DNA of 64,000 nt from Giardia intestinalis (lineage: Eukaryota): assembly GCA_000002435.2 (NCBI GenBank), contig CM018793.1; one strand, written 5' to 3'. Both the position numbers and the translations under genes were made by a program. Positions 36,878 through 64,000 of this stretch are shown here, piece after piece (the first letter of the stretch is position 1; each line of letters opens with the position of its first letter). The notes under the pieces are model-generated. The model made no database searches. It had not been told where the DNA came from and saw only the letters and a program-made list of their open reading frames with translations.

Positions 36878-36914
36878 GGCCAAAAATTAACTTGCAGACT
36901 TTTTGATTTCGGGA

Positions 36915-36921
36915 ATTTACT
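36915..36921 (-). terminator. Polyadenylation signal AGTAAAT, 3-9 nt after the stop of beta-tubulin copy 1.
   Basis: Minus strand reads TGAGCGAGTAAATTCCCG. Confidence 0.5.
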
Positions 36922-36924
36922 CGC

Positions 36925-38268: not shown

Positions 38269-38608
38269 TTTTAAATTTTGGCAGTCCAAAAAATTCCCAA
38301 GGAATATTAAATTGAATTCTAATATGCTTCGTAATTTTCAATCTTCAGTGTAGTGTATTCGACAACAAACTAAAGGCCCGCAACACACTGCATGCCAAAT
38401 TTCAGCGACCATTATTTGACCATCGTACTTGCATGCCTGGGTCATCGCACTACTTAATGGTCTTCAACTTGTATTCTGCCACCCGTCCAATAGATTGAGA
38501 TAGGTCTTAGCTTAAGTCTAGAACTACTCATAAGGGCGGCCCACTTCAGGATCCCTGCTTTGTCTACCTAGCCCTAATCACAAGTCCAGAGAAGCATACT
38601 CAGTCACA

Positions 38609-40528: not shown

Positions 40529-43500
40529 TTACTTGTATTTGTAATCGCTGAAAAGATCTATCAGCGACGCCCTTACCTGGGGAGGAACACGTGGGCTGCA
40601 ATTCTGGGCGTAGTACTTGGGGCCTCTACCAATGCTATCCTTCATACCACCTTCAAAAGGGAGAAGGATGGTTGCCGCTTTGAGCCGGCCATGGTAACAG
40701 GCGAGAATTAGAGCCGTGAACTTCGATGGCAAACGCTCGTGCCAGCGACCGACAAATCCTGCCTCGTCTTCTACTAACAAGTTGACTAGATTGTTATTGC
40801 CCATTACAACTGCATACATCAGAGCCGTGAACCCATTCCTGTCTTGAATCCTTGTCTCTGCTGTCGCGAGAATTCGTGCACAGAATGTCCTCTTCTGCTC
40901 AACTGCATGCATCAGTGCAGTCTTCCCGGACCAATCCTGAACGCGACCCTGGAGGGGAATCAAGCACCACACGGTAAGCGGATTGTTCTCGGTCACCGCA
41001 GTCATAAGGTCAGTGTGGCGTCTCGTTGTGACTTTGATGCCGTTGCCTATATCGATTCCCTCAAGAGACCTAAGTATAGCTGCCGTAGCGTAATTCCCCT
41101 TGTAAAGGGCAATCTCCAATGCGGTGAGGTTCTCTGGACCGCGAATATTTGCTTCAAGAGGGCCCAGTTTTTCAGCAATCTGTGCCCTATCAAGATACGC
41201 TGCAAGCATGAGGGCTGTGGCACCGTCAGATCTTGTTTTACGCACATACATCAGGTTCTTATCTACTTCGCTGATTTTATCGTTCAAAACAGCTCGCATC
41301 AAAGGAGTTACGTTAGTATATATGCCATCAATAAGATTGAGACAAAATGAAGCGGTGCTCGTCGTCGTCGACGTCATGCTAGAGCCTGGCTCTAGATCTT
41401 GCGTTGTCATTCTTCTGTCTCTCTCGTCTTGGAGAGCAGCCAAGTAGCTGTCCTCTTCGTCTCCCGGCACATAGTCGCGCATGTCAAACGGATTCCGACG
41501 TCCGGATTGGTCGCTTTTCTCCTGCCTTACGCTGCTTCCCCGTCTGCTCGAGATCTTCTTGCATAGTTCATCAGTTATAGAGCCAGAATATGAAGTTGCC
41601 CTATCGTCGAGATTACCTCCAGATGCATACACGTGGCTGTCGCCCTCTCCTCGGAGGCTTGCTGGCCGCGTTGACTGTGTTGACAAAGGAGCTTGGGGAC
41701 CTTTAGTCTGCACATTTGTGCACGCTTCAATCTCCTTTTGTTCTGGTTGAATTTCGTACAAAGAATCGTGATTTGCTCTATGTGCATAAGCTGGCCGAGC
41801 CTCCAACATGGCCTTTTCGGCCAAGATATCTGCATATTTCTTTTCCTGCTCTTTTAGCAGCTCCCTTAAGTCAATGATCTCGGATGCCAACTTGCCTGCC
41901 TCGGCGCTCAAAACCACATTGCTGGACTGAAGATCCATGCACTTCTTCTCGAGGTCATCATTGCTATTTTGCAAGCGTGTGAGTTCTTTTTCAAGCTCGT
42001 CATCTGCCGGAAGATGACTCACGGCGCCTGTTCTAAGATTAATAGTGCTAATTTCATGCACTAGATTCTTATTAGGGTCATCGTCTGCGGGATCATCTCT
42101 ATCGTATGCCTTTTGATGAGATAGAATATCGTCTATTTCATCGGGGCTAAAATTCAGCTTAATCAAAAGCTCATGGTATGAATTAGAGTTTCTTATAATG
42201 TCGTATATATCGTCCATCTTCGGAGATGGCTGCTGGTTGTTATCATTGAATCCTAAAACGCTTACTGGAGAGCCACACTCGCCAGGTCTTGGTGAAGAGG
42301 TCATGCGGCCTCGAAGCTCCAAGATATCATTGGAAAGCGTACTTTCTTTTGCAAGAGATTCATCCAGCCTATCTTTGAGCTCCTCTATCTCTGAGGTCAT
42401 GTGATCTATTGTGTCGCGGCAAACAGTAAGCTCTGAGACCAGCTGGGATTTTTCATCACGTTCTTCTCTAAGCTGCTCGAGGATGACCTGCTTGTCGTCG
42501 AGGGCCTCCTGAAGCTCCAGCTGCACCTTATTAAGCTTTATCTGGACAACAGATGCATTTATTTCCGTAAATTCATTAGATTTAGTGCCCGGGAGTGGAG
42601 GAAGCTTTGCAGTGGGCGGTTCCCTATATCTGATATCTTGATCAGTCCCTATGTCAAATGACATGACGTACTCGCGACCCTCGCTGGCCATTTGATTAGA
42701 CCCTGCAGATTCTCCCTTAGTGCCATAATGCGACTCTGGAAACGAGAAAGACGTGTTAGAGATAGTCATATCAACTTCAATTTCATGGTTTGTCTCACTC
42801 AAATCGTATTTGTTTGAAGCGATTTGTGGCCTTACGCTTTCCATGCTGGGTCCCATAGTCATGCTCATTTTAAGCTGAGACTGACGCAGGTCATATAGCT
42901 CTTGCCGCAGGGTTTTAATTTGCTCGTCTCTTGTTGCCAGCTGCCTCGTTAGTGCTTCAACTTCAGCCTGCAAGGACAAGTTTTCTGTTTCAAGGCGCTC
43001 CTCTAAGCCTGGAACAACAGTGCAACCAGGGGTAGGGCTTCTCATTTCAACCATTTCAATCGAGCTACTGTGCGATGTGTCCGGGCAATTGCTCCCCACG
43101 TCGTCCACATTATTACATGGCCCATCAGTGTCAGCATCAATAGGCACAATACTTTGGGGTCTCCCAGTGGATGATTGCTCAGGGACACTCATGCTTCGCT
43201 TCAAGTCGTTGTATACCTGCTCTGCGCTATCCTTATTGTTGCGTAAAAACTCCAAGATTTGCTCCACAGTGAGCTCTTCTGTGACGCCCTCGTTCTTTGC
43301 TGCATCAGGCAGCACTTTGCTGGATTGACCCTGCTCTATGTCATCCAAGGACATACGCAGTTGCTTGTTCCTTAGCTCAAGGCTGGACACCTGCAACTCA
43401 AGGCTTGAACACTTGTCTTGCAACCGTCGTATGTCTGCATCTGGTGTAGTTGGAGTAGTAAACGAGTTGTCAAGATTGGAAAACTTATTCTCCCATGAGC

Positions 43501-44539
43501 GACAACTCTGTTCTTTCAGTAGATTCTGAAGCCGCTGTATTTCATACGTTGCAGTGTAGAGCTGAGACCGCAAGTTCGCTATCTCCTCCCCCTTCCGACC
43601 GATATCCCGCCTTGTCGGTGAGCTCGAATTGAAGATAGAGGCGCCACCCTGCTGAAGATTTGCATGCAGTTCTCCAGTTTGTATAGAACGTACATCAATA
43701 GATGTGTCCGATACAACAAGATCATTTTTCGAATCTAAGTCCCACGGAGTGTCAGTTCCTGGAGGACTGGCATATACGCTGTAAGGATACATACTGTCCA
43801 CTGTTGCATGCTGGTGGTCGTCTGAGCTGACGTTAGCGCTACAACAAGCTTCGTTGACCCTAGTGTCATCATACGAAACGTGGTCAATGGAAGTAGGCTC
43901 CCCTCCTTTAGATATGCTTCGTTCTAGTGCAGCTGCGCTACGACACTCTCTTATGACATCGTTGATAGAATCAGACCCGACGATTTCTTGAAGTAGACCG
44001 TTCAAGAAGTCTAGCATCTGCACATCCCCCTGGGTAGTCGCCATATCGATACAACTTACTAGTTCTTTTTTGGTTGGGGGGAAAGCTCGTACAAGTATGG
44101 TTGCACACTGTATATGCCCGCTTAGGGCGGCGTAAAAGAGAGCGGTATGTCCTTCAGAATCAGTGTCGTCACCAATATGATCAACCAAAACACGCAGCGC
44201 GTCATTGCTTCCAGTATCTGCTGCAACCATAAGAGCATTAACGCCCGTGTCAGTCGTGATTCCGCTCTCCAAAGGTGCAAGCAAACGACACAAATCCGTA
44301 TTATTTGAGCCCGCGGCTAACATCAGCGCGGTGTGTCCAGTTGGCGTCGTCATCTTGGACTCTACCTCTGCAAGAATATGGGCGGCAGCCAGGTTTCCAG
44401 CCCTAACAGCAACCATCAGTGCTGTCTCGCCCTTGCTGTCCAGAGCACGCTGAAAGTCGTTTAGGTTCATCTGTAAGACAACGCAGTCGTCTTCATTGGC
44501 AGCCTGAAACCATTGGCTCCTAGTAATCTCGGGCTCCAT
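40529..44539 (-). CDS. Large ankyrin-repeat / coiled-coil protein ('Protein 21.1'-like).
   Basis: N- and C-terminal ankyrin repeats (ETALMVAVRAGNLAAAHIL, HTALMLAAGSNNTDLCRLL; C-term ATALMLAAYLDRAQIAEKL, KTALMHAVEQKRTFCARIL, FTALMYAVVMGNNNLVNLL) flank long coiled coils. Track start 44584 is GTG; the first ATG is at 44539 (MEPEITRSQWF), preceded by an AT-rich tract. Confidence 0.7.
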   Translation of the reverse strand: MEPEITRSQWFQAANEDDCVVLQMNLNDFQRALDSKGETALMVAVRAGNLAAAHILAEVESKMTTPTGHTALMLAAGSNNTDLCRLLAPLESGITTDTGVNALMVAADTGSNDALRVLVDHIGDDTDSEGHTALFYAALSGHIQCATILVRAFPPTKKELVSCIDMATTQGDVQMLDFLNGLLQEIVGSDSINDVIRECRSAAALERSISKGGEPTSIDHVSYDDTRVNEACCSANVSSDDHQHATVDSMYPYSVYASPPGTDTPWDLDSKNDLVVSDTSIDVRSIQTGELHANLQQGGASIFNSSSPTRRDIGRKGEEIANLRSQLYTATYEIQRLQNLLKEQSCRSWENKFSNLDNSFTTPTTPDADIRRLQDKCSSLELQVSSLELRNKQLRMSLDDIEQGQSSKVLPDAAKNEGVTEELTVEQILEFLRNNKDSAEQVYNDLKRSMSVPEQSSTGRPQSIVPIDADTDGPCNNVDDVGSNCPDTSHSSSIEMVEMRSPTPGCTVVPGLEERLETENLSLQAEVEALTRQLATRDEQIKTLRQELYDLRQSQLKMSMTMGPSMESVRPQIASNKYDLSETNHEIEVDMTISNTSFSFPESHYGTKGESAGSNQMASEGREYVMSFDIGTDQDIRYREPPTAKLPPLPGTKSNEFTEINASVVQIKLNKVQLELQEALDDKQVILEQLREERDEKSQLVSELTVCRDTIDHMTSEIEELKDRLDESLAKESTLSNDILELRGRMTSSPRPGECGSPVSVLGFNDNNQQPSPKMDDIYDIIRNSNSYHELLIKLNFSPDEIDDILSHQKAYDRDDPADDDPNKNLVHEISTINLRTGAVSHLPADDELEKELTRLQNSNDDLEKKCMDLQSSNVVLSAEAGKLASEIIDLRELLKEQEKKYADILAEKAMLEARPAYAHRANHDSLYEIQPEQKEIEACTNVQTKGPQAPLSTQSTRPASLRGEGDSHVYASGGNLDDRATSYSGSITDELCKKISSRRGSSVRQEKSDQSGRRNPFDMRDYVPGDEEDSYLAALQDERDRRMTTQDLEPGSSMTSTTTSTASFCLNLIDGIYTNVTPLMRAVLNDKISEVDKNLMYVRKTRSDGATALMLAAYLDRAQIAEKLGPLEANIRGPENLTALEIALYKGNYATAAILRSLEGIDIGNGIKVTTRRHTDLMTAVTENNPLTVWCLIPLQGRVQDWSGKTALMHAVEQKRTFCARILATAETRIQDRNGFTALMYAVVMGNNNLVNLLVEDEAGFVGRWHERLPSKFTALILACYHGRLKAATILLPFEGGMKDSIGRGPKYYAQNCSPRVPPQVRASLIDLFSDYKYK

Positions 44540-44588
44540 TCCAGGAATCGGGAATAATCTATTTTGTTTTTTGGACGCGGACACTCCT

Positions 44589-46511
44589 ATGCCTATTATG
44601 TCGGGGTCTATGCTCGGCGATCGCTATGAGATCATTTCCAGGCTGGGCGTCGGATCCTTCGGTGTAGTGTATAAAGTAAAAAGGCTTTCTGATGAGAGAA
44701 TTGTAGCGGTCAAAGAGGTTCGTTTAGAATCCTTCGCCAGTAATAAGCCTAGTGTGGAAGGTGAGTTCTCCATTTTCCCGCACCTCACCCACCCTCATAT
44801 TGCTACGTACTATTTGCAAACGTATGATGCAACAACGAACTGCTATCTAATAGAAATGGAGTGCTATGATAGAGGCAATTTAAAGGCATACATTCAGGAG
44901 TACAGGCGTAACAAGATAGATATCCCCGAGGAGGAAATCTGGAGGTTTTCATCCGAGATCCTTTTGGCTCTGGATTATCTCCACACCGATGATCATCAAA
45001 ATAAGACTAAAGGTGTTATCATTCATAGGGATATCAAGCCAGAAAACATACTTCTTACACAAGATAACCACGTAAAGCTATGTGATTTTGGAGCCTCTCG
45101 TCTTCTGAAACCCTCCGCGATGGCAGACTCTGTCGTGGGCTCTCCATTATTTATGGCCCCAGAGGTTGCATATCATAAGGGTTATCGCGAACCAGTTGAC
45201 ATCTGGTCTCTTGGCTGCGTCATAGTTAATATGTGCACGCGGATGGCGCCCCAAGTAATTAGGAATAAATCCTATGATCAGCTCCTTGACGTACGCCCTA
45301 ATATTCCAGAGATATACTCACGGGACCTTGCTGATTTTATTGCCTCTTGTCTCAAGATAGATCCGTCCCATCGGATAACCGTGCCACAGGCTTTGAGGCA
45401 TCCCCGTATCATAACTCATTTACACAAGGATAGCCTCATTGCCTCTCTCGTACCCCATAACGACAAAGGTGATACAATTAAGGCACATCCATCACTCCCA
45501 GACACCACACGATCGACCTCCGGTATCAGAAGTCAACGATATTCTCAGGTATGCAACGGGTCTTCTGTAAAGAGTACTTTGGGTACAATTTCTGTCTGTT
45601 CCTTTGAGGCTGATGTGCGGCCACTTAGCGTGTCTGGATTCTTAGTTAATACATCCGCTCTACCCAGTGAAAGTACTGCTCCTCCACGCAGCAACACATC
45701 CACAGCACCTCCTCGTATACGTAGATACTTGGAGGATTCTGAGCTTAGCCGCTCCTCCGTCTCTAGGGCCCCTTACCAAAGCACTCATTACACACCTATA
45801 AAGCTCGCTACAAGCGCAGAGTACAACAGCTTTGCTGCCACTTTGAAGGACGGGACGACAGGTCTTATGTTGGCAGCTATGGCTAACGATATTGATGCTT
45901 TTCATGACCTCTTACCCATCCAAGCAAGAATGCAGGACAAGCGAGGAAGAACAGCCTTAATGCGAGCTGCAGAATACGGTCATATAGATGCCATTGTAAT
46001 TCTCTCTCCATTGGAAAGTAGGCAGACTGATGTCGATGCTCATACAGCACTAATGTACTCGGCAAAATTTGGCAAAGTGCATTGCATCAGTTTGCTCCTC
46101 CAAGCAGAGGGAAGATGCAGAAAGCGAAACGGGTGGACAGCATTAATGACCGCTATAGAAACAGGGAATTTGGAGATTGTTTCACTGCTTAAACCAAAGG
46201 AAGAAGATATTTCCATGATGGACGGCACAACCCCACTTATGGTTGCGGCCAAGGTGGGGAACGTCGCATGTCTTCAGATGCTCATTGACGCAGGAGCCGG
46301 AAAGGTAGACGAATCTGGCTTCTTTGCGCTACTTTGGGCCATCGTCTGCAATAATCCACCATGCGTTTCTTTTCTCCTTCCTTATGAGCTACACATGGCA
46401 GACAAAAACGGTAAAACAGCCTATCAATGGGCAAAAGACAAGAAAAAGAAGGAATGCCTTATACTTATCGAAGAATATTGCAGGGCCAAAGGAGTGAATT
46501 TGCAGTATTAG
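44589..46511 (+). CDS. NEK-family Ser/Thr kinase with C-terminal ankyrin repeats.
   Basis: Track start 44571 is TTG; the first ATG is at 44589. LGVGSFGVVYKV, AVKEV, HRDIKPENILL, DFGASR, FMAPEV, then ankyrin repeats (TTGLMLAAMANDIDAFHDLL, RTALMRAAEYGHIDAIVIL, etc.). A 49-bp AT-rich divergent promoter is shared with the upstream gene. Confidence 0.8.
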   Translation: MPIMSGSMLGDRYEIISRLGVGSFGVVYKVKRLSDERIVAVKEVRLESFASNKPSVEGEFSIFPHLTHPHIATYYLQTYDATTNCYLIEMECYDRGNLKAYIQEYRRNKIDIPEEEIWRFSSEILLALDYLHTDDHQNKTKGVIIHRDIKPENILLTQDNHVKLCDFGASRLLKPSAMADSVVGSPLFMAPEVAYHKGYREPVDIWSLGCVIVNMCTRMAPQVIRNKSYDQLLDVRPNIPEIYSRDLADFIASCLKIDPSHRITVPQALRHPRIITHLHKDSLIASLVPHNDKGDTIKAHPSLPDTTRSTSGIRSQRYSQVCNGSSVKSTLGTISVCSFEADVRPLSVSGFLVNTSALPSESTAPPRSNTSTAPPRIRRYLEDSELSRSSVSRAPYQSTHYTPIKLATSAEYNSFAATLKDGTTGLMLAAMANDIDAFHDLLPIQARMQDKRGRTALMRAAEYGHIDAIVILSPLESRQTDVDAHTALMYSAKFGKVHCISLLLQAEGRCRKRNGWTALMTAIETGNLEIVSLLKPKEEDISMMDGTTPLMVAAKVGNVACLQMLIDAGAGKVDESGFFALLWAIVCNNPPCVSFLLPYELHMADKNGKTAYQWAKDKKKKECLILIEEYCRAKGVNLQY

Positions 46512-50653: not shown

Positions 50654-53060
50654 ATAGTCAGAATATTTACAATTAATAGCGAATTGACAGCGGGCTCCTA
50701 GCTAGGCTTATTGCCTCTAAGACACCGAAATATATAATAGCATAGCTGTTAACTAGGTAACCGATTAAGATTCGGTTAATTGTAAATGCATATTTTGCCT
50801 CTATTAACGAGGAAGGCAACGACTATTGCTCCAGTATTCTTCAATAATCTGAGCAGTTTTGCAGGGCTTTCCCCATGCATTTTTAAAGAGGTTGGATTAT
50901 GATTATAGCAATCTGAAGAATACAAATTTTTAAGACTCACTGCATATTACCTTTAACTCGCTAAGCGATGCAGAAAAAGATGTCAGCTTGGCCTGCAGTA
51001 GTTCTCTGACCCTTCTGCCTCAGTGGCCTCTCTGATGAGCAACAGCCAACTGGAAAGTCGTCAATCGCTGGAACGCTCATACCACATAGTGGCCGCTCAA
51101 GAGGTGCAAGGGCTGCACACACCGCTGTGGACGGGATGTTCGGTCAGCGGCTCTCCGGTGCGTTGAGCTGGCCCTTAGTTGCCACTCTGTGGCCTCCGAT
51201 AGGGACGAGCCTTATGAAGAGGCTTGCTTGGAGAACTCCTGACATTGCGACGCCTATCCTGAGAAGACAATGCTAACTCGCATAAGGTACTTCCACTGCT
51301 CATTCCCGCTGATCCAGATAAACGCCTTGCATGCTTCAGATTGTCCTCTGTTGCCAGCAGAGCAGCCACCGCCCTGTGTGTCTCCTTCAGACACATGCCC
51401 ATCTATGACGGCGCTTCCTGTCTCTTCTCTGAAGAGGCACAACCGTCCCAATCCAGACACCTTGCTCTCAGCACACACCTCGTATCTATCAGAGGCCAGG
51501 TGTTCGTCGACCATATTCCATGAGCATCAGTACTGTGCCACTATGTTACTTCCTGTCCTGAGGGGCGTGCTCTGACCATCCCAGTGTCTCTATGATAGGA
51601 GAGCTGTGGATCCGGAGGTGGTTGTTGCTTTCTGGCCCTCTCTGCTGTCCAGTAGACTGCAAGAGCGCCCTTCGGAAGTCGGTCCCCTAACCTCCTGTTC
51701 TCTCGGGGAAGTGGTCCTTGGATAGCGCCACTCGGAAGACTCCCGAAGCCTCACTACACGAGCTGCTGCACCTGGGGACTCCTGGAGTATCCTTATAAAG
51801 TCGCCCAGTGACGCAAGTCCTACCCATTGTCAGCGGAGGTCTCGGCTCTCAAGGACATCTCAGGGACAGCACGTCAGCGCCACTTCCTGACAGGGGCATG
51901 CGGAAGATCTGCTTCCTCTTGTGGATCCATCATTGGCATCGAGAGCACTAAGCCTGCCATCTTCGCTGGAGGTGTCAGCAGACGGTACTCCGCATCCACC
52001 CACGGAAGGGCTGAATCGTGTGCTGTCGTCATAATATTCCATATTAATGCAGATAAACCTCCCGGTGGCACTTGGGGATTCCCGACACGGTGCGCTAATA
52101 TACTACTTGCTCGAGCTATTGCTCAGATCTGCGATCCCCGTGGTCTGGGCCAGGTGCCTTGAATGGCCTCCAGCCCTAGTAGGAGCACAGGTCGGTGCTC
52201 CTTGTTCCAAACAAGCATTCCATCTATTGTGCCCAGCCCTGAAAGACCCGCTCCTTTGCCGGTATCCGAGCGCTGTCTGCCCCCAGGGGGCATGCTGGCA
52301 TTCAACAGAGAGGCTTGCAGATACCACAGATCTCGGTGGTAAAGCGCCTGGGCCCCTGCCCTGGGCACGAGTAAGAAGCCCCAGCAGTACTTCGCTGCGG
52401 ACTATGACACGGTTCCTGTGTGGTGCCAGGCGATGCACAGCAGCCACGAGTGTGCAGTCCTCTGCGCCTGCCCACCGATGACGCAGCCGGGGCCTGTGGA
52501 GCAGCAGGGTCGAGACACACATATGGGAGGCGCCGACGGGCATTGGACCATTGGCCGTCAAATGGTGGGTATGACTTGAGAGGTGGCTCGCGGCAGGTAA
52601 TTTACTCGACCGCAGCAGACAGGATCGCCTTTGGCCTAAAACCGCCATGTGTCGGTAGATGCACCTGTGTCTTCCACCACTGTTCTGTGTGCCATTATTA
52701 TATTCTGGCGTCTCTAGATTTGGCAGAGGCATCTAACAAGGAATTCACAACTAGAGGCTGGCCCAACAGCCAGAGAGGCGTCTATTGGGCTGTACACCCA
52801 TGCACCGGATTGTCTTGAAGGGGTCGTTCCCTCTCTAATCACGTGCTCTGTCCCCGGTCCGTACCAGCGAAAGTCTTACTGAGACAATGCACTGGCAACG
52901 GACACAATAACCGGTGTTAGGGTAACTAACTGAGACACCCACTGCCCAGGATACTGACCAGACCACCAGGCAGCGATTGGCCGGAATAAGGGAGAGCCGC
53001 TCTCCTTGGCATACTCTACTATGTGCGTGCAAGAATGGATGGACCATAAAGTGAGGCCAC
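50654..53060. other. 2.4-kb block with no credible ORF: AT-rich for the first ~350 bp, then moderately GC-rich.
   Basis: Only short overlapping ORFs (209 aa or less) with no codon bias and no cysteine periodicity. Contrasts with 7-50 bp intergenic spacers elsewhere. Confidence 0.4.
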
Positions 53061-55484
53061 TCAATTCTTCTTTCGGAAGACGAAAAACCAAACCAGCACA
53101 GCCGCCACACCGCCGACGACAAGGACCACGCCGATGGCGATGCCAGAGATGGCACTAGACGAGAGGGCGGACTTTTTGGAGGTGTTGTCGTACTCCAGAC
53201 ATATGGGTGTGGCTGCGCCCTCTGGAACCACGCAGAGGCTGCACTTGGAGATCGCCTTGTGACACGCCTTGCACGTGTTTTCGGAGAAGTAGTACCCGGT
53301 CAGGCAGTCGAAGCATGCCTTCCCATGGGGGCAGGTGGCGCAGCCCTTGGAGCACGCCTTGCATGCCCCCTTCTCCAGGTAGAACCCGCTGTTACAGGCG
53401 TTGCAGACCCCACTACTACACATTGCACAGTTCGTCGGGCATGTAAGGAGCGTTCCGTTGTACGTTATCCCATACCCAGCCACGATGCTATCACACCAGC
53501 CGTTATTCTCCTTCGTACAGACAGTCTTCCCGGGGAGGAGTGTGGAGGTGTAGCACCCCCCGTTGAGGCTGAAGGAGTTTGAGCTGCAGAGAGCACATCT
53601 ACCGTCGGCGACATTCACGCACGCGGTACCAGCCGCCCGCGAGCTGGAGGAGGTGCACACCCCGTTGTTGGGGTACTCCGTGCTCTTGGCACAGCGCGAG
53701 CAGTAGCTGGTCCCGCTCACCGTGAGCCCGCACTCTGCACAGCTGCTGTCCTTCACGCACTGCGGGACGCACGATCCCTTGGCACCGTCGCTGTACTGCA
53801 GCCGCTTCCTGGCAGGGCAGGAGGTGCAGTCGCCGGATGCCGGTCCGCTGCACGTGGCGCACTCAGAGCTGCACGGCTTGCATCCTCCCGAGCCCTCGAC
53901 GTAGAACCCGTCCCTGCACGTCTTGCACTTGGATTCCGACTCGCAGACTACGCAGTTGCCGAGCGTGCACGCCACGCACCTCGAGACGCCGCCCACGGTG
54001 GCCTTGTAGTACCCGGCGGAGCCCAGGCAGTCCTTCACGCACAGACCGTGGGGATCGAGGCTGTTGCCATCGGTACACTTTGTGCACACGTCTCTGTCCT
54101 CGCACGTGTCGCAGTTGGGGTCCTTGCACTTGGTCGCCACGCACTGACTGCTGGAGAGTGTGTAGCCATACTTGCACTTCTTACAGCTCGACTCGTCACA
54201 CTCAGCGCAGTTCTCCACCGCGCACCCGACACACTTCCCGTCCTTCAGATAGGACCCGTCATCGCACGCGCAGCTGTGGACCGAGGATGAGGACTCCTGC
54301 ACGCCCTTCTGCCCCTTGGGACAGCTGGCCAGGCAGCTCCTCTTATCCAGGCTCAGGTAGAGGTCGCGGCACTCCAGACACTGAAGACCACTGTCCTTCA
54401 TCTCACACCTTTGGCATCCCTCTATTCCCCCGTTGGCTGAGTCCCCGCAGCGCCAGCATCTGCTATTCTTGGTGAACACCTCTTTGGTTGAACTGTTACA
54501 TGTGGTGCAAACGTTGCCCTGCATTGCTTGACAAATATAAGATTCTATTTGATTCGGAGCATTATTAAATAAGTAGCATCCACCATAAAACAAGAAGTAT
54601 TGCCCGCTGCTATCATTCTTACAAGATGTGCATTTTCCTGTTCTAGGATCTTTCGTACAAACATTACCAAATTCGCTGATTGACTTACAGAGGCCATTCT
54701 GAGGCGCTTCTGATGAATTGGCGCATTGTGTGCACAACGATCGTCCCTGTATATCTATAGTATTTCTTGGTAAACAGATACTGTTACCAATTATACTATC
54801 TGCGGTATAACACCCAAACTGACTCCAGACGTAACCCCTAGGGCAAACATAACAATAGCCAAAAACAGCTGTGCTAGAAGCAGGCTTGCATCGAAAATCA
54901 AAAGGGCACATAACTCGTTCTGAGCATTCGCTACAGCTGGGTATAGTGTTCCCTGGCAACCTATGTTGGTTACAGTACTGACACCTATATACACCACTAC
55001 TCCCGCCAAAGCCTACTATATCTCCGCAGTAGATACAGCGTTCAGGAGAGGTCGCATTAGGGTTGGTAAAAGTTATTGGGGTATAATACCCACCGCCCTT
55101 TCCGCACTCTTGACAAATCCCATTTTCTGCACGATCGCAGATACTTGCTTTCCATCTGCCAGACAATTCATAGCAGCCACCGTAAAATAAGAAGTAACCA
55201 TTGTTACATCCTGTGCACCATCCACCTTTCGGCGATTTAACACAACCGGCTTTATTAACTTTTTCGTCTGTAGTAGCAACACATGTGCCATTGATGGGAA
55301 CATAATCCTGGCTACACTCTGTGCAAAAAAAAGTAGTTAAGTCCACTAGGCATCTATCCTGAAGACACTGTGGGATCCTGCCTTCACAAGAATACCCAAA
55401 GCCATTGTAGTATACAAACGTTTCCTCAGAGAAAGACCCTGCCAGAAAACAAGTCAGAATCACGATCAGCGAAGCCAAAATCAT
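53061..55484 (-). CDS. High-cysteine membrane protein (VSP-like ectodomain with non-VSP tail).
   Basis: Signal peptide MILASLIVILTCFLAGSFS. About 11 percent Cys with many CxxC and GGCY motifs. One TM segment (GIAIGVVLVVGGVAAVLVWFFVF) and a short cytoplasmic tail RKKN, not the VSP-specific CRGKA. Track start 55526 is GTG; the first ATG is at 55484. Confidence 0.8.
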   Translation of the reverse strand: MILASLIVILTCFLAGSFSEETFVYYNGFGYSCEGRIPQCLQDRCLVDLTTFFCTECSQDYVPINGTCVATTDEKVNKAGCVKSPKGGWCTGCNNGYFLFYGGCYELSGRWKASICDRAENGICQECGKGGGYYTPITFTNPNATSPERCIYCGDIVGFGGSSGVYRCQYCNQHRLPGNTIPSCSECSERVMCPFDFRCKPASSTAVFGYCYVCPRGYVWSQFGCYTADSIIGNSICLPRNTIDIQGRSLCTQCANSSEAPQNGLCKSISEFGNVCTKDPRTGKCTSCKNDSSGQYFLFYGGCYLFNNAPNQIESYICQAMQGNVCTTCNSSTKEVFTKNSRCWRCGDSANGGIEGCQRCEMKDSGLQCLECRDLYLSLDKRSCLASCPKGQKGVQESSSSVHSCACDDGSYLKDGKCVGCAVENCAECDESSCKKCKYGYTLSSSQCVATKCKDPNCDTCEDRDVCTKCTDGNSLDPHGLCVKDCLGSAGYYKATVGGVSRCVACTLGNCVVCESESKCKTCRDGFYVEGSGGCKPCSSECATCSGPASGDCTSCPARKRLQYSDGAKGSCVPQCVKDSSCAECGLTVSGTSYCSRCAKSTEYPNNGVCTSSSSRAAGTACVNVADGRCALCSSNSFSLNGGCYTSTLLPGKTVCTKENNGWCDSIVAGYGITYNGTLLTCPTNCAMCSSGVCNACNSGFYLEKGACKACSKGCATCPHGKACFDCLTGYYFSENTCKACHKAISKCSLCVVPEGAATPICLEYDNTSKKSALSSSAISGIAIGVVLVVGGVAAVLVWFFVFRKKN

Positions 55485-57279
55485 GGGGCTATTATTCTTT
55501 ATTGGATACCTATGAAAGTTACACACTAATCCGAGTCAGCCACTGAAAGCCTTGGCTTAGAATTACAACTGTCAGAATAATACCCCTTGTACTTCTTACA
55601 GACAGACTACAGCCGGCAGACCCATGGAAGGGCTCACTCTACTTACACTAGTCATCGACTCACACGGCGACCTGAGCAGCCTGTAATCTGGCTCTGCAAT
55701 GAAACAGTTAGGCGATCTGTTTGTCTCCATTCTCAAGCAGACTTGCCTAATTCAAAATTACTAACATACGCTTCAAAGTTTCGCAGGACTTACAGTACAG
55801 AAAACTCATTGGGAACATGTTCCGAGCAAACACGTTCGATACACAACCACCTCACAAAGGACTCTCTGCTATCAAGAAGATCCTCTCGAGGTCTATGAGT
55901 GGGGTAACTGTAAGCAAGCTCCTTGAAGAATGGCTGTTTTCAGGCGCCTGTCCATCCCCTTACCCCGATGTTCCAGGAGCCAGCATCAGTCATATCTTCG
56001 TTGAGCAAGGGCACTGTGGAGGGAACCCTGCAGGGCCTAACGAGCGTTCGGAGGTGCAGCAGAACAACGACGAGACACGGTGTGCCATCGCATAGGCACT
56101 AAGATCTCGCTGACCTGTGCACTGAAGGATGCAGGCCATCCGAGTCCTTCTCTGTATGCAATCGTAGCCTGCTGCTTTCGTCGGTGTTTGTCCTCCACGA
56201 GGGCCCTTATTACCCGAAGCCCTAGAGCCCTGAGGTCGTACTGCGGCAAGCATCTGCTCTACAGGTGCTGACGTACAGGCCACTTTACTTTAGTACTGGC
56301 AGTCGGAGAATACTTCGACGTGGTTTGTTCAGAGACGCCAGGAGTACAGCCAAGTACCTTGCCGACAAACACAGCATCCAGCCCCAGAAGAACATCTAGT
56401 CCTCCTGAGGCACGATGCGGCCATGTTTGTCTTCTGCTGGTACCGGGCCCAAACGGACAGCCTGCTTACCGAAGAAGAACGTATGCAGTTAGACACCTCT
56501 GAAGGCCTGGCCTGCCCTAGCAACCCAATTCACTGCGGAGTGCTCTTTGCTGCCCCCGCCCCCGGTGCACGGAGATTTAATCAAGTAAATCGCTATTTGG
56601 ACATTGAAACATTCCCTTCCTTATTATCAACAGCCGCCCTGCAGCCGCTACCGGAAGGACCCGCGTGTATGACCTTTGCTCTAACGCTAAGCAAGGGTGC
56701 TTTAATGTGTGGCAACGTAGAACTCGTTTCGACAAAGCATGCGGCCTTATCCACTCTCTCTATGTGCCTATTGGATAAGGCTCAATCGAGTACACACAAG
56801 CCTTTTGTTTATCAAAAAATACTACCTCTGGCCGAGCCTACCTCTCATAACCAAAACGAAGGCACTTACTGACGTGCAACACGATGGGAAAACGGACCCA
56901 CACTGTATCTTGAGGTAGCAGTCAATGATTAGGCAGGTGGTGCTTGCATTAGCGCATCAAAGGGAAAATTATGGACCACTGCCTCTGAACTTAATGTCAA
57001 GTTTGTACAGCCTAGCCCCATATGGGACGAAGCTTATGCGCATACATGAGTGGATTTGACTGCATAATCACATTGAGTTGAGATACAGACGACACAGGGT
57101 ATTACGGCCCAGTCACATGGAGTAATCGAGCTTCCTGTGGAGAACACCCTGAAAGGCTAGACCATCTGGAAAAGATACTTGACCTCACAACATTTGTAGA
57201 TCCATCACATATAGAGATCCGCTCATAGCCAGTGTGGTCATCGCATGGGATCCGTCGATGATGCGCTTATTATTTAAGT
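55485..57279. other. 1.8-kb block without convincing genes between the high-cysteine protein's 5' end and the VSP fragment.
   Basis: Only short ORFs, for example 56423..56872 (149 aa, true ATG, no features). Confidence 0.35.
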
Positions 57280-58086
57280 CTATAGCTTTCCTCTACAAAG
57301 GAGCCACCAGCGGCGGAAGCCGGCCAAAGCAGCAACAACGAGAAAGCCGGCCGCTGCCCCCTGCGATCGCTGCCCTCTTCCTGACCAGCTCCTTGGCTGG
57401 AACGCAGACGCCCTTCTGAGGACTGCGTCGATCTCACACATGCACACCCCCTGGTTCGATGAGGCCCTGGCGCCGCACCCTTCTGCACACGTCCGCTGGT
57501 CTACTTGGACGTTGTGGCCCGAAGTGACACACGAGAGGCACCTACCCGACTCATCGCAGGCAGCACACAACGGCATGCCAGAGGAACACTCGACTGCGGA
57601 CACACACCCGGATCTATCCAGCGCCGGCAGGAAGCCCCGCTCGCACCAGCACCTCCGCACGCCGCCGGACACCTCTCCCACCACCTTGTCCCCGGTGCAC
57701 TCCTCCAGGCACGACTGCCCGTCCAGGCTCACGAAAAGCTCCTCCGCGCACTCTGTGCAGAAGGATGTATGCCCGCAGGTCTTGCACCCCGGAGTGGCGC
57801 AGGGCAGGCACGCGTCTCCGTATGCGTAGTACCCGTCCACACAGGCGCCGGGGTCGACGCAGCTCCCGGTGGCGGCACCCGAGGCCTTCTTCAGGAGCTT
57901 GTCAGAGGGGCACCTGGTGCAGCGGCCGGGGCCAGGGGCAGTGCACTCCAGGCACCCAGGGGCACAGGGCTGCAGGCTCCCATCGGCCGATATCCAGTAC
58001 CCCTTCTTGGTCGTTGTGCACTTCCCGCCTGACTGCTTATCACAGATAGTACTTCCCGGATAGTACTTCGTTGTGTAGCAGCCCGT
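57280..58086 (-). pseudogene. Variant-specific surface protein (VSP) 3' fragment: C-terminal ~268 codons without a start codon or signal peptide. Tail is ...WWLLCRGKL.
   Basis: Minus-strand frame is open from the stop at 58087-58089 down to TAG at 57280-57282. It reads ...GKCTTTKKGYWISADGSLQPCAPGCLECTAPGPGRCTRCPSDKLLKKASGAATGSCVDPGACVDGYYAYGDACLPCATPGCKTC...TM...FRRWWLLCRGKL*. There is no in-frame ATG until deep inside. The track 'M' at 57840 is GTG. Confidence 0.6.
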
Positions 58087-58211
58087 TCATCAGGAAGGCC
58101 GCTTCAGAGCAGGCAGGGCAACCTAGGAGTGCACACCCGGCCCGGCGCTTGTCACAAACGACCACTCACAGCGGCAAACGGAGGTGCAGGCCTGCTTAGA
58201 ATGCGCGGAGA

Positions 58212-58218
58212 GTTTACT
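58212..58218 (-). terminator. Polyadenylation signal AGTAAAC after beta-tubulin copy 2.
   Basis: Minus strand reads TGAGTGAGTAAACTCTCCG. Confidence 0.5.
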
Positions 58219-58221
58219 CAC

Positions 58222-59565
58222 TCAGGCGTACTCGTCGCCGAAGTCCTCCTCCTCCTCGAACTCCTCGCCCTCGTCGACGCCGGCCTCCTGGTACTGCTGG
58301 TACTCGGAGACGAGGTCGTTCATGTTCGACTCGGCCTCTGTGAACTCCATCTCGTCCATCCCCTCGCCCGTGTACCAGTGGAGGAAGGCCTTGCGGCGGA
58401 ACATCGCCGTGAACTGCTCGCCGACGCGCTTGAAGAGCTCCTGGATGCACGTGGAGTTTCCGATGAAGGTCGCGGCCATCTTGAGCCCGCGCGGCGGGAT
58501 GTCGCAGACGCTGACCTTCATGTTGTTCGGGATCCACTCGACGAAGTACGAGGAGTTCTTGTTCTGGATGTTGAGCATCTGCTCGTCGACCTCCTTCGTG
58601 GACATGCGCCCGCGGAACATGGCGGCGGCGGTCAGGTAGCGGCCGTGGCGCGGGTCGGACGCGGCCATCATGTTCTTGTTGTCGAACATCTGGGAGACGA
58701 GCTCGGGGACCGTGAGGGCGCGGTAGATCTGGGAGCCGCGGCTCGTCAGGGGCGCGAAGCCGACGAGGAAGAAGTGGAGGCGCGGGAACGGGATCAGGTT
58801 GACCGCGAGCTTGCGGAGGTCGGCGTTGAGCTGGCCGGGGAAGCGGAGGCAGCTCGTGCAGCCGGACATGACGAGCGAGACGAGGTGGTTGAGGTCTCCG
58901 TAGGTGGGGCACGTGAGCTTGAGCGTGCGGAAGCAGATGTCGTAGAGGGCCTCGTTGTCGATGCAGAAGACCTCGTCGGCGTGCTCGACGAGCTGGTGGA
59001 CCGAGAGGGTCGCGTTGTACGGCTCAACGACCGTGTCCGAGACCTTCGGGGACGGGACGACGGAGAACGTGCACATCATGCGGTCGGGGTACTCCTCGCG
59101 GATCTTCGCGATGAGGAGCGTGCCCATCCCGGCGCCCGTGCCGCCCCCCAGGGAGTGGCAGATCTGGAAGCCCTGGAGGCAGTCGCACGCCTCGGACTCC
59201 TTGCGGACGACGTCGAGGACGGCGTCGACGAGCTCGGCGCCCTCCGTGTAGTGGCCCTTCGCCCAGTTGTTCCCGGCGCCGGACTGGCCGAAGACGAAGT
59301 TGTCGGGGCGGAAGATCTGCCCGAAGGGGCCTGCGCGGACAGAGTCCATCGTGCCCGGCTCGAGGTCCACGAGGATGGCGCGGGGGACGTACCTGCCGCC
59401 CGCCGCCTCGTTGAAGTAGACGTTGATCCTCTCGATCTGGAGCTCCGAGTCCCCGCGGTACTCGCCGCTCGGGTCGACGCCGTGCTCGTCGGAGATGACC
59501 TCCCAGAACTTCGCGCCGATCTGGTTGCCGCACTGGCCTGCCTGGATGTGGACAATCTCACGCAT
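58222..59565 (-). CDS. Beta-tubulin (copy 2 of 3).
   Basis: 447 aa, identical in protein sequence to copy 1. ATG at 59565 is preceded by GATTTAAAA, with an in-frame TAA at -6. Confidence 0.95.
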
Positions 59566-59744
59566 TTTTAAATCGGCGCCGGCGGAATCTGGATTTGGCG
59601 GCGGCCAAGTTCAGATTGCGTAACAATAAATATGCAATAATGACATGAATGCAACCACTGTTATATACCATAGGTGGTCCTGTGGGAATCCTTACTTAAT
59701 GGTACAAGGCGATAAGTCAACAAAGTGTTGGAGCACCTACGGAA

Positions 59745-61319
59745 ATGTCCAATAAATACAATATTTACACTACAAATGCCGTCTTAAAAATGTCCCTGCC
59801 TGAGTTGAACGAGCTCGAGCCCAAGGATCTCTGGCAAAACTTCTTCTTTATGTGCGGGATACCACATGGGTCGGGAAATGTCACGGCTATCGTCCAGGCC
59901 CTCAAGGAGCGTGCCGAAGCAGCCGGTCTCAAGGCGACCATTGAAGCCTCCTCCGGGAATCTTCTCATTGTGAAGGAGGCAGACCCAGGATGCGAGAATG
60001 CCCCAACAGTCTGCCTACAAGGTCATTGTGACATGGTTTGCAGCAAGCGTGCCACGACAGAGCACGACTTCCTCAAAGATCCGATTCGCCCACGTCTTGA
60101 GATGACGGACGGCAAGCTCTGTATGTATGCAAACGGGACGACTCTCGGGGCAGATAACGGGATCGGCGTCTCTGCTGCCCTCGCGATTGCTTGTGACAAG
60201 ACTCTGAAGACGGGCCGTATCGAGGTCCTCGTCACTATCGACGAGGAGACTACAATGCACGGCGTGAAGCACATGGGGACGGACCTTCTCGAAGCCAAGT
60301 ACTTGCTGAATCTGGACTCTGAGGACCTCGGGGTCGTAACTATTGGGTCTGCAGGAGGGTTCAATGGCAACTTTTACTTCAATCCCGCAACCTTCAAGAC
60401 CATAGATTGTGACTCTTGCAATTGCCTGAGTATTGAAGTCAAGGGATTCTCGGGTGGACACTCTGGCGTCGACATCCACCATTACAGAGGCAATGCTATA
60501 AAGATTATGGCGCGTATCCTGGACATTGCCTGTAGCCTTGAGTATCAAGGAAAGATTTGCTCCATCAAGGGCGGAACAGCCCACAATGCAATTCCTATGG
60601 ACTGTTCTGCCTGTCTGTGCTTCTGCGGTGTCAGTCAGGCCAAGATCGCCAGCTTCATTTCTGAAGCCAAAAAGCTTGCGGAGGATCTTAAGACTGAGTA
60701 CAAGACAACCGACAGTGACGCCACGATAGTGATTCATGAGCAGAGCCAGACCTGCCATGGCAAGTGCACTCATGCTCTCTATGTTTCGTCGCGCAGCCTT
60801 GTTGACTTTCTGCTTACTTGCCCCTCTCAGGTTATTCGCGTGTCTCAGGACGTTGAAGGCCTTACGGAGAGCTCGATGAATCTGGGCAAAGTGAGGTTCA
60901 GCGCAGAGAACCTCCCTGGGAGTTACATTGTCACTCTGTCTCGTTCGTCGGTCAACTCCTACCTTGATGCCAACGACAAGATGTTGGCTGGGCTCGCCCG
61001 CATGGCCAGGATCTTCAAGTATAGCGGCAAGCTGGATCCGTACGGCGGCTGGACCCCGAATCCTCACTCCAAGCTGCTAGAGATCTGCAAGAGGCACTAC
61101 GCAGACGCCCTCGGCGGGAAAGAGCCGATCGTGGAGGCCATCCACGCCGGCCTTGAGTGTGGCGAGATTATCTCTAGATATCCCAGCATGGAGGCTATTT
61201 CCATCGGGCCGACTATTAGGAATCCTCATAGTGACAGCGAACTCTGTGAAGTGGAGACTGTTCTGCCGTTCTACAATGTCGTCAAGGGCATTGTCTCGGA
61301 GATTGCCACCCTCCAGTAA
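59745..61319 (+). CDS. pepD: Aminoacyl-histidine (Xaa-His) dipeptidase PepD, peptidase family M20C.
   Basis: Matches bacterial PepD blocks: LQGHCDMV (vs LQAHLDMV), HDFLKDPIRP, NGTTLGADNGIGVSAALAIA, IHAGLECG, SIGPTIRNPHS. ATG at 59745. Confidence 0.85.
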   Translation: MSNKYNIYTTNAVLKMSLPELNELEPKDLWQNFFFMCGIPHGSGNVTAIVQALKERAEAAGLKATIEASSGNLLIVKEADPGCENAPTVCLQGHCDMVCSKRATTEHDFLKDPIRPRLEMTDGKLCMYANGTTLGADNGIGVSAALAIACDKTLKTGRIEVLVTIDEETTMHGVKHMGTDLLEAKYLLNLDSEDLGVVTIGSAGGFNGNFYFNPATFKTIDCDSCNCLSIEVKGFSGGHSGVDIHHYRGNAIKIMARILDIACSLEYQGKICSIKGGTAHNAIPMDCSACLCFCGVSQAKIASFISEAKKLAEDLKTEYKTTDSDATIVIHEQSQTCHGKCTHALYVSSRSLVDFLLTCPSQVIRVSQDVEGLTESSMNLGKVRFSAENLPGSYIVTLSRSSVNSYLDANDKMLAGLARMARIFKYSGKLDPYGGWTPNPHSKLLEICKRHYADALGGKEPIVEAIHAGLECGEIISRYPSMEAISIGPTIRNPHSDSELCEVETVLPFYNVVKGIVSEIATLQ

Positions 61320-61326
61320 ATTTTGA

Positions 61327-62790
61327 ATGCCGTTTATTCCGTGGGTGCTGTGTCGCAGACTCTCAGGCTTGCTCAGAGAGCAGATTCGCAGGTCCCTTGA
61401 GGCAGTGGGCGATTATATAATTCGCGGAAGAGAAGGAGGAACTAGACTCCAGTTTATTGTTATTCCATCCGGGGAAGCTGTGGCGTCATCACATCTTCTG
61501 CTAGACGAGATTATGGATCTTATTCAGGTTTCTTCTCCAGACACGCACATAGTGAGCTCTCTAGGGTCTGACATAATACAAAACGTTCCTTGGGATAGGA
61601 CGGACATTGCTTTGATCGTCGATGGAAACGACCTCTTTCCGCTACGGGGAAATGACGATGGTGCGCTTCGAGTCATGCGGTGTTTCCTATCCCATATAAG
61701 GGCCAACGAGGCTTCGCGCATCCTTCTTATCATATTAACAACCGCACTTCCCACTGTCTTCATTTACATGTTCAAGAAAACTATGGCCCGGGCCGTCGGC
61801 CAGATAACGCTTTTAGTGCCCCAGAGCATACAATGCTGTCCACTACATATTGGCATGGACCTCTGCGATAGTATCCTTGGAGAGCTGCTCGTAGAAGGAG
61901 TTCTCCCAAGTAAAGACAGTGTCAACTATATGAATAGTCTCGACGGGTCAGAACTTATAATGCTGCCTGAGATGATCTACCGAGCCCTTACACAGACTGG
62001 AGCAGTGCAGACTAAGGTAGCTAATCATCTGTGCAAGATTCTAAACACGTGTCTTCTAATATACCAAGTCATGATACAGCACATCCCCTTCCAAGGAGAG
62101 CTGAGTACATTTTGCTTGTTTCTAATTAACATGTTGAAGGGCCGCCTTGACCAGTGGCCCCACTCTCGGGCAATAACCTTGGCAACAGAGCGGGAAATGG
62201 ATACAGCCCAAATGGCTATTCTATCAAAGTGTATATGTGACATTTTAGAGAAAGGGTCGGTGCAATCAGACCCTAGGGACACGCCCCGCTGGGTCTCAGA
62301 GTACAACAGTATGCTCAAAAAAGAGGTAGCGTTGCTAAGCGACGACCTCCTAACTATAGAAAGTTGGCCTGCAAAACGCCGCACGCAGCACGCGCACACG
62401 ATTTTTAACACAGTATACGGAGGGATAATCGGACACCTGTTCCCCCTGTCTCTTTGGGATGCTGTCTATACAACGGAGAACAGTTCCTTGTTCCTCGTAG
62501 GACAGCATAACAACCCAAATATCCAACTTGACGGCTTGATTGGCTCATACAATGACACCATCTGTGAAGCAACCTGGAGCATTCTCAAGACAGTGAGGGC
62601 AGGGTCTATTGCTGTCAACACCCTCTTCCAACAAGCAGCAGAAAACTACTTCAAAACCCATTGGATACGGTCAGATGATCATACAACGCTGATCAGTGAC
62701 TTCATCACCTTCCTAATGGCACTGCAGCAGGCACAGATAGTGACAATCACCGCTCAGAGCGCCAGACTGATGGTTGAAATGATTATATGA
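61327..62790 (+). CDS. Hypothetical protein.
   Basis: ATG at 61327, only 7 bp after the dipeptidase TAA. 487 aa, no recognisable domain. Confidence 0.55.
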   Translation: MPFIPWVLCRRLSGLLREQIRRSLEAVGDYIIRGREGGTRLQFIVIPSGEAVASSHLLLDEIMDLIQVSSPDTHIVSSLGSDIIQNVPWDRTDIALIVDGNDLFPLRGNDDGALRVMRCFLSHIRANEASRILLIILTTALPTVFIYMFKKTMARAVGQITLLVPQSIQCCPLHIGMDLCDSILGELLVEGVLPSKDSVNYMNSLDGSELIMLPEMIYRALTQTGAVQTKVANHLCKILNTCLLIYQVMIQHIPFQGELSTFCLFLINMLKGRLDQWPHSRAITLATEREMDTAQMAILSKCICDILEKGSVQSDPRDTPRWVSEYNSMLKKEVALLSDDLLTIESWPAKRRTQHAHTIFNTVYGGIIGHLFPLSLWDAVYTTENSSLFLVGQHNNPNIQLDGLIGSYNDTICEATWSILKTVRAGSIAVNTLFQQAAENYFKTHWIRSDDHTTLISDFITFLMALQQAQIVTITAQSARLMVEMII

Positions 62791-62804
62791 TTGCCATTTA
62801 AATT

Positions 62805-64000
62805 GCAATCTGAACTTGGCCGCCGCCAAATCCAGATTCCGCCGGCGCCGATTTAAAAATGCGTGAGATTGTCCACATCCAGGCAGGCCAGTGCGGCAAC
62901 CAGATCGGCGCGAAGTTCTGGGAGGTCATCTCCGACGAGCACGGCGTCGACCCGAGCGGCGAGTACCGCGGGGACTCGGAGCTCCAGATCGAGAGGATCA
63001 ACGTCTACTTCAACGAGGCGGCGGGCGGCAGGTACGTCCCCCGCGCCATCCTCGTGGACCTCGAGCCGGGCACGATGGACTCTGTCCGCGCAGGCCCCTT
63101 CGGGCAGATCTTCCGCCCCGACAACTTCGTCTTCGGCCAGTCCGGCGCCGGGAACAACTGGGCGAAGGGCCACTACACGGAGGGCGCCGAGCTCGTCGAC
63201 GCCGTCCTCGACGTCGTCCGCAAGGAGTCCGAGGCGTGCGACTGCCTCCAGGGCTTCCAGATCTGCCACTCCCTGGGGGGCGGCACGGGCGCCGGGATGG
63301 GCACGCTCCTCATCGCGAAGATCCGCGAGGAGTACCCCGACCGCATGATGTGCACGTTCTCCGTCGTCCCGTCCCCGAAGGTCTCGGACACGGTCGTTGA
63401 GCCGTACAACGCGACCCTCTCGGTCCACCAGCTCGTCGAGCACGCCGACGAGGTCTTCTGCATCGACAACGAGGCCCTCTACGACATCTGCTTCCGCACG
63501 CTCAAGCTCACGTGCCCCACCTACGGAGACCTCAACCACCTCGTCTCGCTCGTCATGTCCGGCTGCACGAGCTGCCTCCGCTTCCCCGGCCAGCTCAACG
63601 CCGACCTCCGCAAGCTCGCGGTCAACCTGATCCCGTTCCCGCGCCTCCACTTCTTCCTCGTCGGCTTCGCGCCCCTGACGAGCCGCGGCTCCCAGATCTA
63701 CCGCGCCCTCACGGTCCCCGAGCTCGTCTCCCAGATGTTCGACAACAAGAACATGATGGCCGCGTCCGACCCGCGCCACGGCCGCTACCTGACCGCCGCC
63801 GCCATGTTCCGCGGGCGCATGTCCACGAAGGAGGTCGACGAGCAGATGCTCAACATCCAGAACAAGAACTCCTCGTACTTCGTCGAGTGGATCCCGAACA
63901 ACATGAAGGTCAGCGTCTGCGACATCCCGCCGCGCGGGCTCAAGATGGCCGCGACCTTCATCGGAAACTCCACGTGCATCCAGGAGCTCTTCAAGCGCGT
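62805..64000. repeat. Inverted-repeat arm B (54-bp flank plus beta-tubulin copy 3; continues past the window).
   Basis: Reverse complement of 58222..59619. The antisense spurious ORFs mirror those of copy 2 (for example 62798..63001 vs 59423..59623). Confidence 0.85.
62859..64000 (+). CDS. Beta-tubulin (copy 3 of 3), 3'-truncated by the window end.
   Basis: ATG at 62859 after ATTTAAAA. The first ~380 codons are identical to copy 2 wherever checked (including ATT at codon 4). Runs off the window. Confidence 0.95.

Follow-up and report, generated by a model that had tools for sequence, protein, structure and literature searches.

We analyzed a 64,000-nucleotide (nt) stretch of the Giardia intestinalis genome (assembly GCA_000002435.2, contig CM018793.1; hereafter the window) that ends in two beta-tubulin genes arranged head to head around a 3.2-kb spacer. 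The pair is genuine and conserved, it belongs to a multicopy gene that is already known, and gene conversion maintains the identity of its members. Together with a third copy located upstream in the window, the two genes make up the three-copy beta-tubulin family already described for this species; the sequence belongs to assemblage A and is WB-like. Taken as a whole, we consider it highly probable that the inverted pair of this family is older than the divergence of assemblages A, B and E, that its arms are kept identical by gene conversion, and that its function is one of dosage. Within this reading, the comparisons below demonstrate the identity of the arms, the conservation of the architecture and the concerted evolution, and a dosage function would be the likely reason for retaining several copies. 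The known three-copy family, the age of the inverted pair and its concerted evolution were all absent from an earlier reading made from the sequence alone (the sequence-only reading).

Two beta-tubulin genes form a head-to-head inverted repeat

A repeat finder identified the segments 58424-59619 and 62805-64000 as 100% complementary over 1196 nt, the right arm being cut by the window end; a perfect inverted match of this length far exceeds what is expected by chance. Compared base by base in coding orientation, beta-tubulin copies 2 and 3 (T2 and T3) are identical from position -54 through nt 1142 of the coding sequence (CDS), where the window ends. The locus comprises the following elements:

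58222-59565, minus strand: beta-tubulin copy 2 (T2), complete CDS, 447 amino acids (aa) (list of open reading frames [ORFs]; Pfam Tubulin, Tubulin_C)
62859-64000, plus strand: beta-tubulin copy 3 (T3), CDS nt 1-1142, cut by the window end (base-by-base comparison)
58424-59619, no strand: left arm of the inverted repeat, the part verifiable within the window, 1196 nt (100% complementarity to 62805-64000)
59620-62804, no strand: unique spacer, 3185 nt (repeat finder)
59745-61319, plus strand: M20-family dipeptidase gene, 524 aa, divergent from T2 (Pfam Peptidase_M20 and M20_dimer)
61327-62790, plus strand: gene for a 487-aa protein found only in Giardia, its stop codon 68 nt before the T3 ATG (ORF list, homology search)

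Membership in the tubulin family is supported by the Pfam domains PF00091 Tubulin (E 8.9e-63) and PF03953 Tubulin_C (E 1.5e-41). All three copies in the window encode the same 447-aa protein, which is also encoded without change in Giardia P15 and in DH contigs, and the ATGs of T2 and T3 are 3293 nt apart. An exact match to the dipeptidase protein of the spacer is likewise present in Giardia intestinalis DH (GCA_000498715.1) and across many sequencing runs. The 487-aa protein has no Pfam match; a homology search returned five homologues, all from Giardia lineages and with 71-97% identity, and its ORF is kept inside the spacer in four lineages.

The sequence-only reading had proposed that copies 2 and 3 form a true head-to-head inverted duplication that includes a common 54-nt 5' flank absent from copy 1, with the spacer at 59620-62804. 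The base-by-base comparison agrees with the former, and the repeat finder returned the same spacer coordinates. It had also put the arms at a minimum of 1.4 kb. Within the window 1196 nt of this length can be checked, as the comparison stops at CDS nt 1142 and the right arm has its outer (3') end further on. The remainder is an extrapolation, backed by the arms of P15 (contig ACVC01000215.1), which match perfectly between -51 and +1358 (about 1409 nt), and by WB-like contigs that enter the gene from the 487-aa side and carry the CDS of copy 2 through the stop codon.

The pair is recovered independently in many assemblies

Short-read assemblies break at the tubulin locus, and this is what could make the second arm look like an artefact or misjoin of the source assembly, a possibility that the sequence-only reading had also raised. 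We found the two junctions that define the pair, between arm and dipeptidase side and between arm and 487-aa side, in more than 20 independent assemblies, in DH and P15, and in four lineages. Because the junctions were recovered independently in this many assemblies and lineages, the inverted pair is not an artefact; the claim of a spurious second arm is contradicted, and we give it almost no credence.

The way in which assemblies break is itself informative. A 3245-nt contig consisting of the spacer plus 30 nt per side recurs in at least 20 samples, and its ends are reverse complements of one another for exactly 30 nt, since de Bruijn assembly stops where an inverted repeat bounds a unique segment. 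The DH contig AHGT01000173.1 (4237 nt) reaches further and holds 482 and 570 nt of the two arms, and the P15 contig ACVC01000215.1 holds both arms complete. Short-read contigs thus stop exactly at the repeat boundaries, in keeping with the warning of the sequence-only reading that such a repeat is prone to break assemblies. Among the WB-like runs, several contigs match the window at 100% identity across 4-12 kb. In addition, according to the supplement to PMC7048089, an independent nanopore-based WB assembly has two tubulin copies on the same strand at a distance of 21,299 bp, which matches the spacing of copies 1 and 2 in the window (21,297 nt) but would also suit an alternative isomer.

The arms evolve in concert and probably predate the split of assemblages

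The same inverted architecture is present in assemblages A, B and E and in a fourth lineage. In P15, which belongs to assemblage E, the gene order is tubulin (minus), 487-aa gene (minus), dipeptidase (minus), tubulin (plus). Spacer contigs of assemblage B (L020) and of the fourth lineage (L021) end in 30-nt inverted-identical termini as well, and the inner repeat boundary falls at a homologous position in all four lineages. Spacer length is nearly constant (3177-3187 nt), with only 76-88% identity between lineages.

Across the tubulin copies that we collected, 31 sites are variable and all of the changes are synonymous. Differences between arms of the same genome number 0 in the window and 0 in P15, against 14 between T2/T3 of the window and P15; 13 changes are private to P15, and each is found in both of its arms. 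A T at nt 12 occurs only in T2 and T3 of the window, the position being a C in T1, in both DH arms, in P15 and in B. The non-coding 5' flank behaves in the same way: its sequence differs strongly among A, B and the fourth lineage, and within any one genome both arms carry the same version. Arms are therefore closer to one another within a genome than they are to their counterparts in other lineages, non-coding flank included, which is the pattern of concerted evolution.

Perfect identity across 1196 nt could also be produced by a very recent inverted duplication, with no ongoing homogenization required. The presence of the same pair, boundary and spacer genes in A, B, E and the fourth lineage, around spacers that are only 76-88% identical, makes this explanation very unlikely. 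Lineage-specific changes that appear in both arms, the non-coding flank among them, instead indicate ongoing gene conversion from arm to arm. We propose that the inverted duplication is older than the split of assemblages A, B and E, and that recurrent homologous recombination between the arms keeps them identical, less often involving copy 1.

Three points weigh against this interpretation. First, synonymous change is slowed by codon selection as well, which could inflate the apparent homogenization of the CDS: GC content at third codon positions (GC3) is 97.8% in the tubulin gene (58222-59565; overall GC 65.7%), as compared with 64% and 53% in the two spacer genes. Codon selection accounts for low divergence between lineages, but it leaves the shared changes and the non-coding flank unexplained. 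Second, assemblage B and the fourth lineage were compared over only 30 nt of each arm end. Third, the outer (3') end of the right arm is beyond the window. The extreme codon bias of the tubulin gene also explains why the composition profile peaks in GC at each of its three copies.

Copy 1 takes part in homogenization over the interior of the gene

36925-38268, minus strand: beta-tubulin copy 1 (T1), 5' flank different beyond -7, dynein heavy-chain gene downstream (repeat finder, base-by-base comparison)

T1 is a direct repeat of T2 at a distance of 21,297 nt and an inverted repeat of T3. Further matches of the repeat finder include an inverted one of 1150 nt (37127-38276 versus 62851-64000) and a direct one running from 36913 and 58210 onward. 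Upstream of the ATG, identity of T1 to T2 and T3 is limited to 7 nt (TTAAAAA). The T1 and T2 coding sequences have two differences, at nt 12 and nt 1341, both synonymous, and the T at nt 1341 is private to T1 among the tubulin copies collected. Past the stop codon, T1 and T2 mismatch at 2 nt and next at 10 nt, and similarity is gone from approximately 13 nt. As the only differences of T1 sit at the two ends of homology, where conversion tracts would be expected to leave them, this copy joins in conversion across the CDS interior.

That Giardia has three beta-tubulin genes has been established since 1989 (Kirk-Mason 1989, as cited in PMC13315228). Their annotations in WB are GL50803_101291, GL50803_136020 and GL50803_136021 (PMC5607323), and work using quantitative PCR or concerned with drug resistance treats the three as indistinguishable and as one target (PMC5607323, PMC8267433). 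When a 454-aa variant of T1 and UTP25 were looked up, the only matches were the DH contig and WB-like contigs of 12.8 kb, which end at the repeat.

Each arm would be a complete minimal transcription unit

59566-59619, minus strand: 54-nt 5' flank of T2 within the repeat, ending TTTAAAAATG, presumed core promoter and very short leader (reverse complement identical to 62805-62858)
62805-62858, plus strand: 54-nt 5' flank of T3 within the repeat (identity to the T2 flank)
58213-58218, minus strand: AGTAAA, matching the Giardia polyadenylation signal, 4 nt past the T2 stop codon (read from the sequence)

Promoters and leaders in Giardia are very short. Upstream of T3 the intergenic DNA amounts to 68 nt in all, 54 nt of which lie inside the repeat, and it is on account of this small total that the shared flank is a likely promoter. 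T2 has more room, its ATG being 179 nt from the divergent dipeptidase gene. Each arm may thus constitute a complete minimal transcription unit, made of a promoter and leader of about 54 nt, an intron-less CDS of 1344 nt and AGTAAA as the poly(A) signal, and the two units are directed away from the 3.2-kb spacer. Their likely role would be to provide the dosage of a very highly expressed cytoskeletal protein.

For copy 1, RNA-derived contigs from WB-like runs (L001/L014 and L018) contain a T1-type 3' end, ...TGAGCGAGTAAATTCCCGAAA (window approximately 36900-36925), followed by poly(A) about 20 nt past the stop codon and, in one of them, by an Illumina adapter. This shows that copy 1 is transcribed and polyadenylated about 20 nt past its stop.

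Flank pairings differ between assemblies

To follow which flanks accompany each tubulin copy, we labeled the 5' flanks SL (dipeptidase side of the spacer), SR (487-aa side) and Z (tRNA-synthetase side of T1), and the 3' flanks D (dynein gene), X (window 57286-58221) and Y (a paralogue of X with about 89% identity, followed by a Cfap43-like gene).

57286-58221, minus strand: X, the 3' flank of T2, a VSP-like cysteine-rich fragment (homology to Y)
Window pairings: Z/D and SL/X, the partner of SR being beyond the window
P15 contig pairings: SL/D and SR/Y
DH contig pairing: Z/Y
Short-read contig pairings: SL/D twice, SR/X four times, SR/D once

In DH, Y, which is about 89% identical to X, follows a tubulin copy and is in turn followed by a gene for a 3189-aa Cfap43-like protein, and the T1 5' flank is joined to this Cfap43-side flank. 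In P15, sequence with about 75% similarity follows a tubulin copy at the same position. The P15 contig lacks the 21.3-kb interval between T1 and T2, its dipeptidase-side arm being joined directly to the dynein flank. Most simply, P15 represents the arrangement of the window without this 21-kb interval, through a deletion, a different ancestral arrangement or an assembly collapse. We also considered P15 as carrying a spacer inverted relative to the X flank and dropped this option; its flank is syntenic with Y, the paralogue seen in DH, so no spacer inversion is needed. The assignment of Y to GL50803_100877, a homology match to the X-flank ORF, was rejected as the nanopore WB assembly places that gene on another contig. 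An exact search with the X-flank ORF, aimed at the 3' flank of T3, gave no match, and the 966-aa neighbor protein of P15 has no recorded orthologue in assemblage A. The X-flank fragment itself, a VSP-like cysteine-rich stretch at 57280-57840 (minus strand), ends in ...CRGKL directly downstream of tubulin copy 2.

These pairings may reflect real rearrangements or mis-phasing. If real, they would make the tubulin copies active recombination hubs, at which a T2-T3 crossover flips the 3.2-kb spacer and segments of 21-25 kb are inverted or lost through crossovers with T1, so that several structural isomers exist within Giardia populations or between them. Recombination from arm to arm is documented as gene conversion, the pairings do differ among the window, P15 and DH assemblies, and a nanopore study of WB predicted 162 intra-isolate inversions (PMC7048089). 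Several observations nevertheless keep us from adopting this view. The P15, DH and Logan data need not span the 1.4 kb of perfect identity, and mis-phasing is therefore equally able to explain discordant pairings. The P15 and DH contigs come from older drafts, which we take to be 454-based. The short-read Logan contigs are unsuited to flank phasing, several being RNA-derived (poly(A), adapter) and at least one being a chimeric path: contig L003 combines T at nt 12 with T at nt 1341, a combination present in no copy of the window, which shows that assembled paths through the collapsed repeat do occur. The examined part of the structural-variant table in PMC7048089 contains no tubulin gene ID, nor is tubulin mentioned in the paper. 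Finally, with the 3' flank of T3 beyond the window, the orientation of the spacer relative to both outer flanks is not statable here. On balance, we see recombination hubs as an unlikely, if reasonable, account of the discordant pairings.

A simple inversion of the spacer by crossover between the arms, which the sequence-only reading had suggested could leave both orientations in a population, is mechanistically plausible, since homologous exchange between the arms is demonstrated. Conversion would at times be accompanied by crossover, and this would flip the spacer. Such an inversion would be neutral, because every gene keeps its own upstream sequence. This bears on another reading of the geometry, namely that inverted repeats around a gene-bearing segment act as a programmed switch in which the flip alters gene expression. 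Geometry is the one feature in its favor. Pfam found no recombinase domain in either spacer protein, as a site-specific flip-flop would call for; both arms carry the same promoter-plus-gene unit, and the arms are 1.4-kb genes rather than short recombination sites. A programmed switch is thus barely credible, and we retain the interpretation of an old inverted pair homogenized by gene conversion.

Other features of the window

The remaining genes are typical of Giardia according to Pfam (a variant-specific surface protein [VSP], NEK/ankyrin proteins, a dynein heavy chain). A complete VSP gene is found at 53061-55526 (minus strand; Pfam VSP, E 9e-83), and the 51-57 kb stretch has few other long ORFs. 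Short-read contigs of approximately 12.8 kb from several WB-like samples all start at about 51,060-51,120 and extend as far as the T1 junction (about 38,280); this common start suggests that another repeated element probably begins near 51.1 kb. An ankyrin-repeat gene (40529-44584, minus strand) and a kinase/ankyrin (NEK-like) gene (44571-46511, plus strand) are divergent with a 14-nt overlap of their 5' ORF ends, which may only be a product of the ORF finder having picked upstream alternative starts (GTG, TTG). Scanning the window for Rfam families and tRNAs gave no matches.

Significance

Beta-tubulin is the target of benzimidazole drugs and a common genotyping and normalization marker in Giardia. 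With three loci and four genome copies, each tetraploid cell holds 12 beta-tubulin gene copies that exchange sequence by conversion, and this has a bearing on how resistance mutations such as E198K could spread or be diluted and on how amplicons should be read. It is debated how far Giardia is able to recombine, and the pair offers a clean case of concerted evolution there, one that is also conserved. The locus is, in addition, an assembly trap of a known type; in other respects it is an unremarkable housekeeping locus with several gene copies.

Comparison with known systems

The genes themselves are those of the known three-copy beta-tubulin family, in which both the gene number and the indistinguishable coding sequences were already established. 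In the searchable literature on Giardia beta-tubulin we found no description of the head-to-head arrangement, its conservation across assemblages or the gene conversion.

Trypanosomatids carry alpha- and beta-tubulin genes in head-to-tail tandem arrays of many units. These arrays are cited as a contrast in PMC13315228. They resemble the family described here in that a multicopy tubulin is kept nearly identical by concerted evolution, presumably for dosage; in Giardia, by contrast, there are three dispersed copies, two of them inverted.

Human Y-chromosome palindromes and plastid inverted repeats consist of near-identical arms around a unique spacer, homogenized by gene conversion, and in plastids crossover between the repeats yields two spacer orientations. 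The tubulin pair shares with both the long near-identical inverted arms, the unique spacer and the concerted evolution. It differs from them in having 1.4-kb arms, in being a nuclear gene pair of a tetraploid binucleate protist, and in that its two spacer orientations are conjectural.

The closest described architecture is that of the identical inverted vsp pairs of the same organism. Giardia lamblia WB has 14 identical inverted vsp gene pairs, arranged head to head or tail to tail (for example, the vsp1267 pair), with 2190-3847 bp between ORFs, flanks whose identity breaks off at an abrupt divergence point, and contigs that terminate there (Adam et al., 2010, PMC2996952); that work makes no mention of tubulin. 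As in the vsp pairs, the tubulin locus consists of two identical inverted ORFs (over 1142 CDS nt here and over the full length in P15). Their distance of 3293 bp falls within the published range, identity ends abruptly at -54 on the 5' side (the 3' divergence point being beyond the window), and assembly contigs end at the pair. There are also clear differences: the genes are not vsp, the spacer carries two genes whereas the intervening DNA of vsp pairs is non-coding, the shared 5' flank is 54 nt as compared with 158-729 nt in head-to-head vsp pairs, and the tubulin pair is conserved across assemblages and accompanied by a third copy in direct orientation. As a tentative idea, which we find doubtful, the discordant pairings would be real, tubulin hubs would generate structural isomers both within Giardia lineages and between them, and a pair spaced by about 3 kb would be the general product of a Giardia-specific mechanism of duplication and homogenization shared with the vsp pairs. 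Given its tubulin genes and coding spacer, the pair described here has the same architecture as the vsp pairs without being a member of their set.

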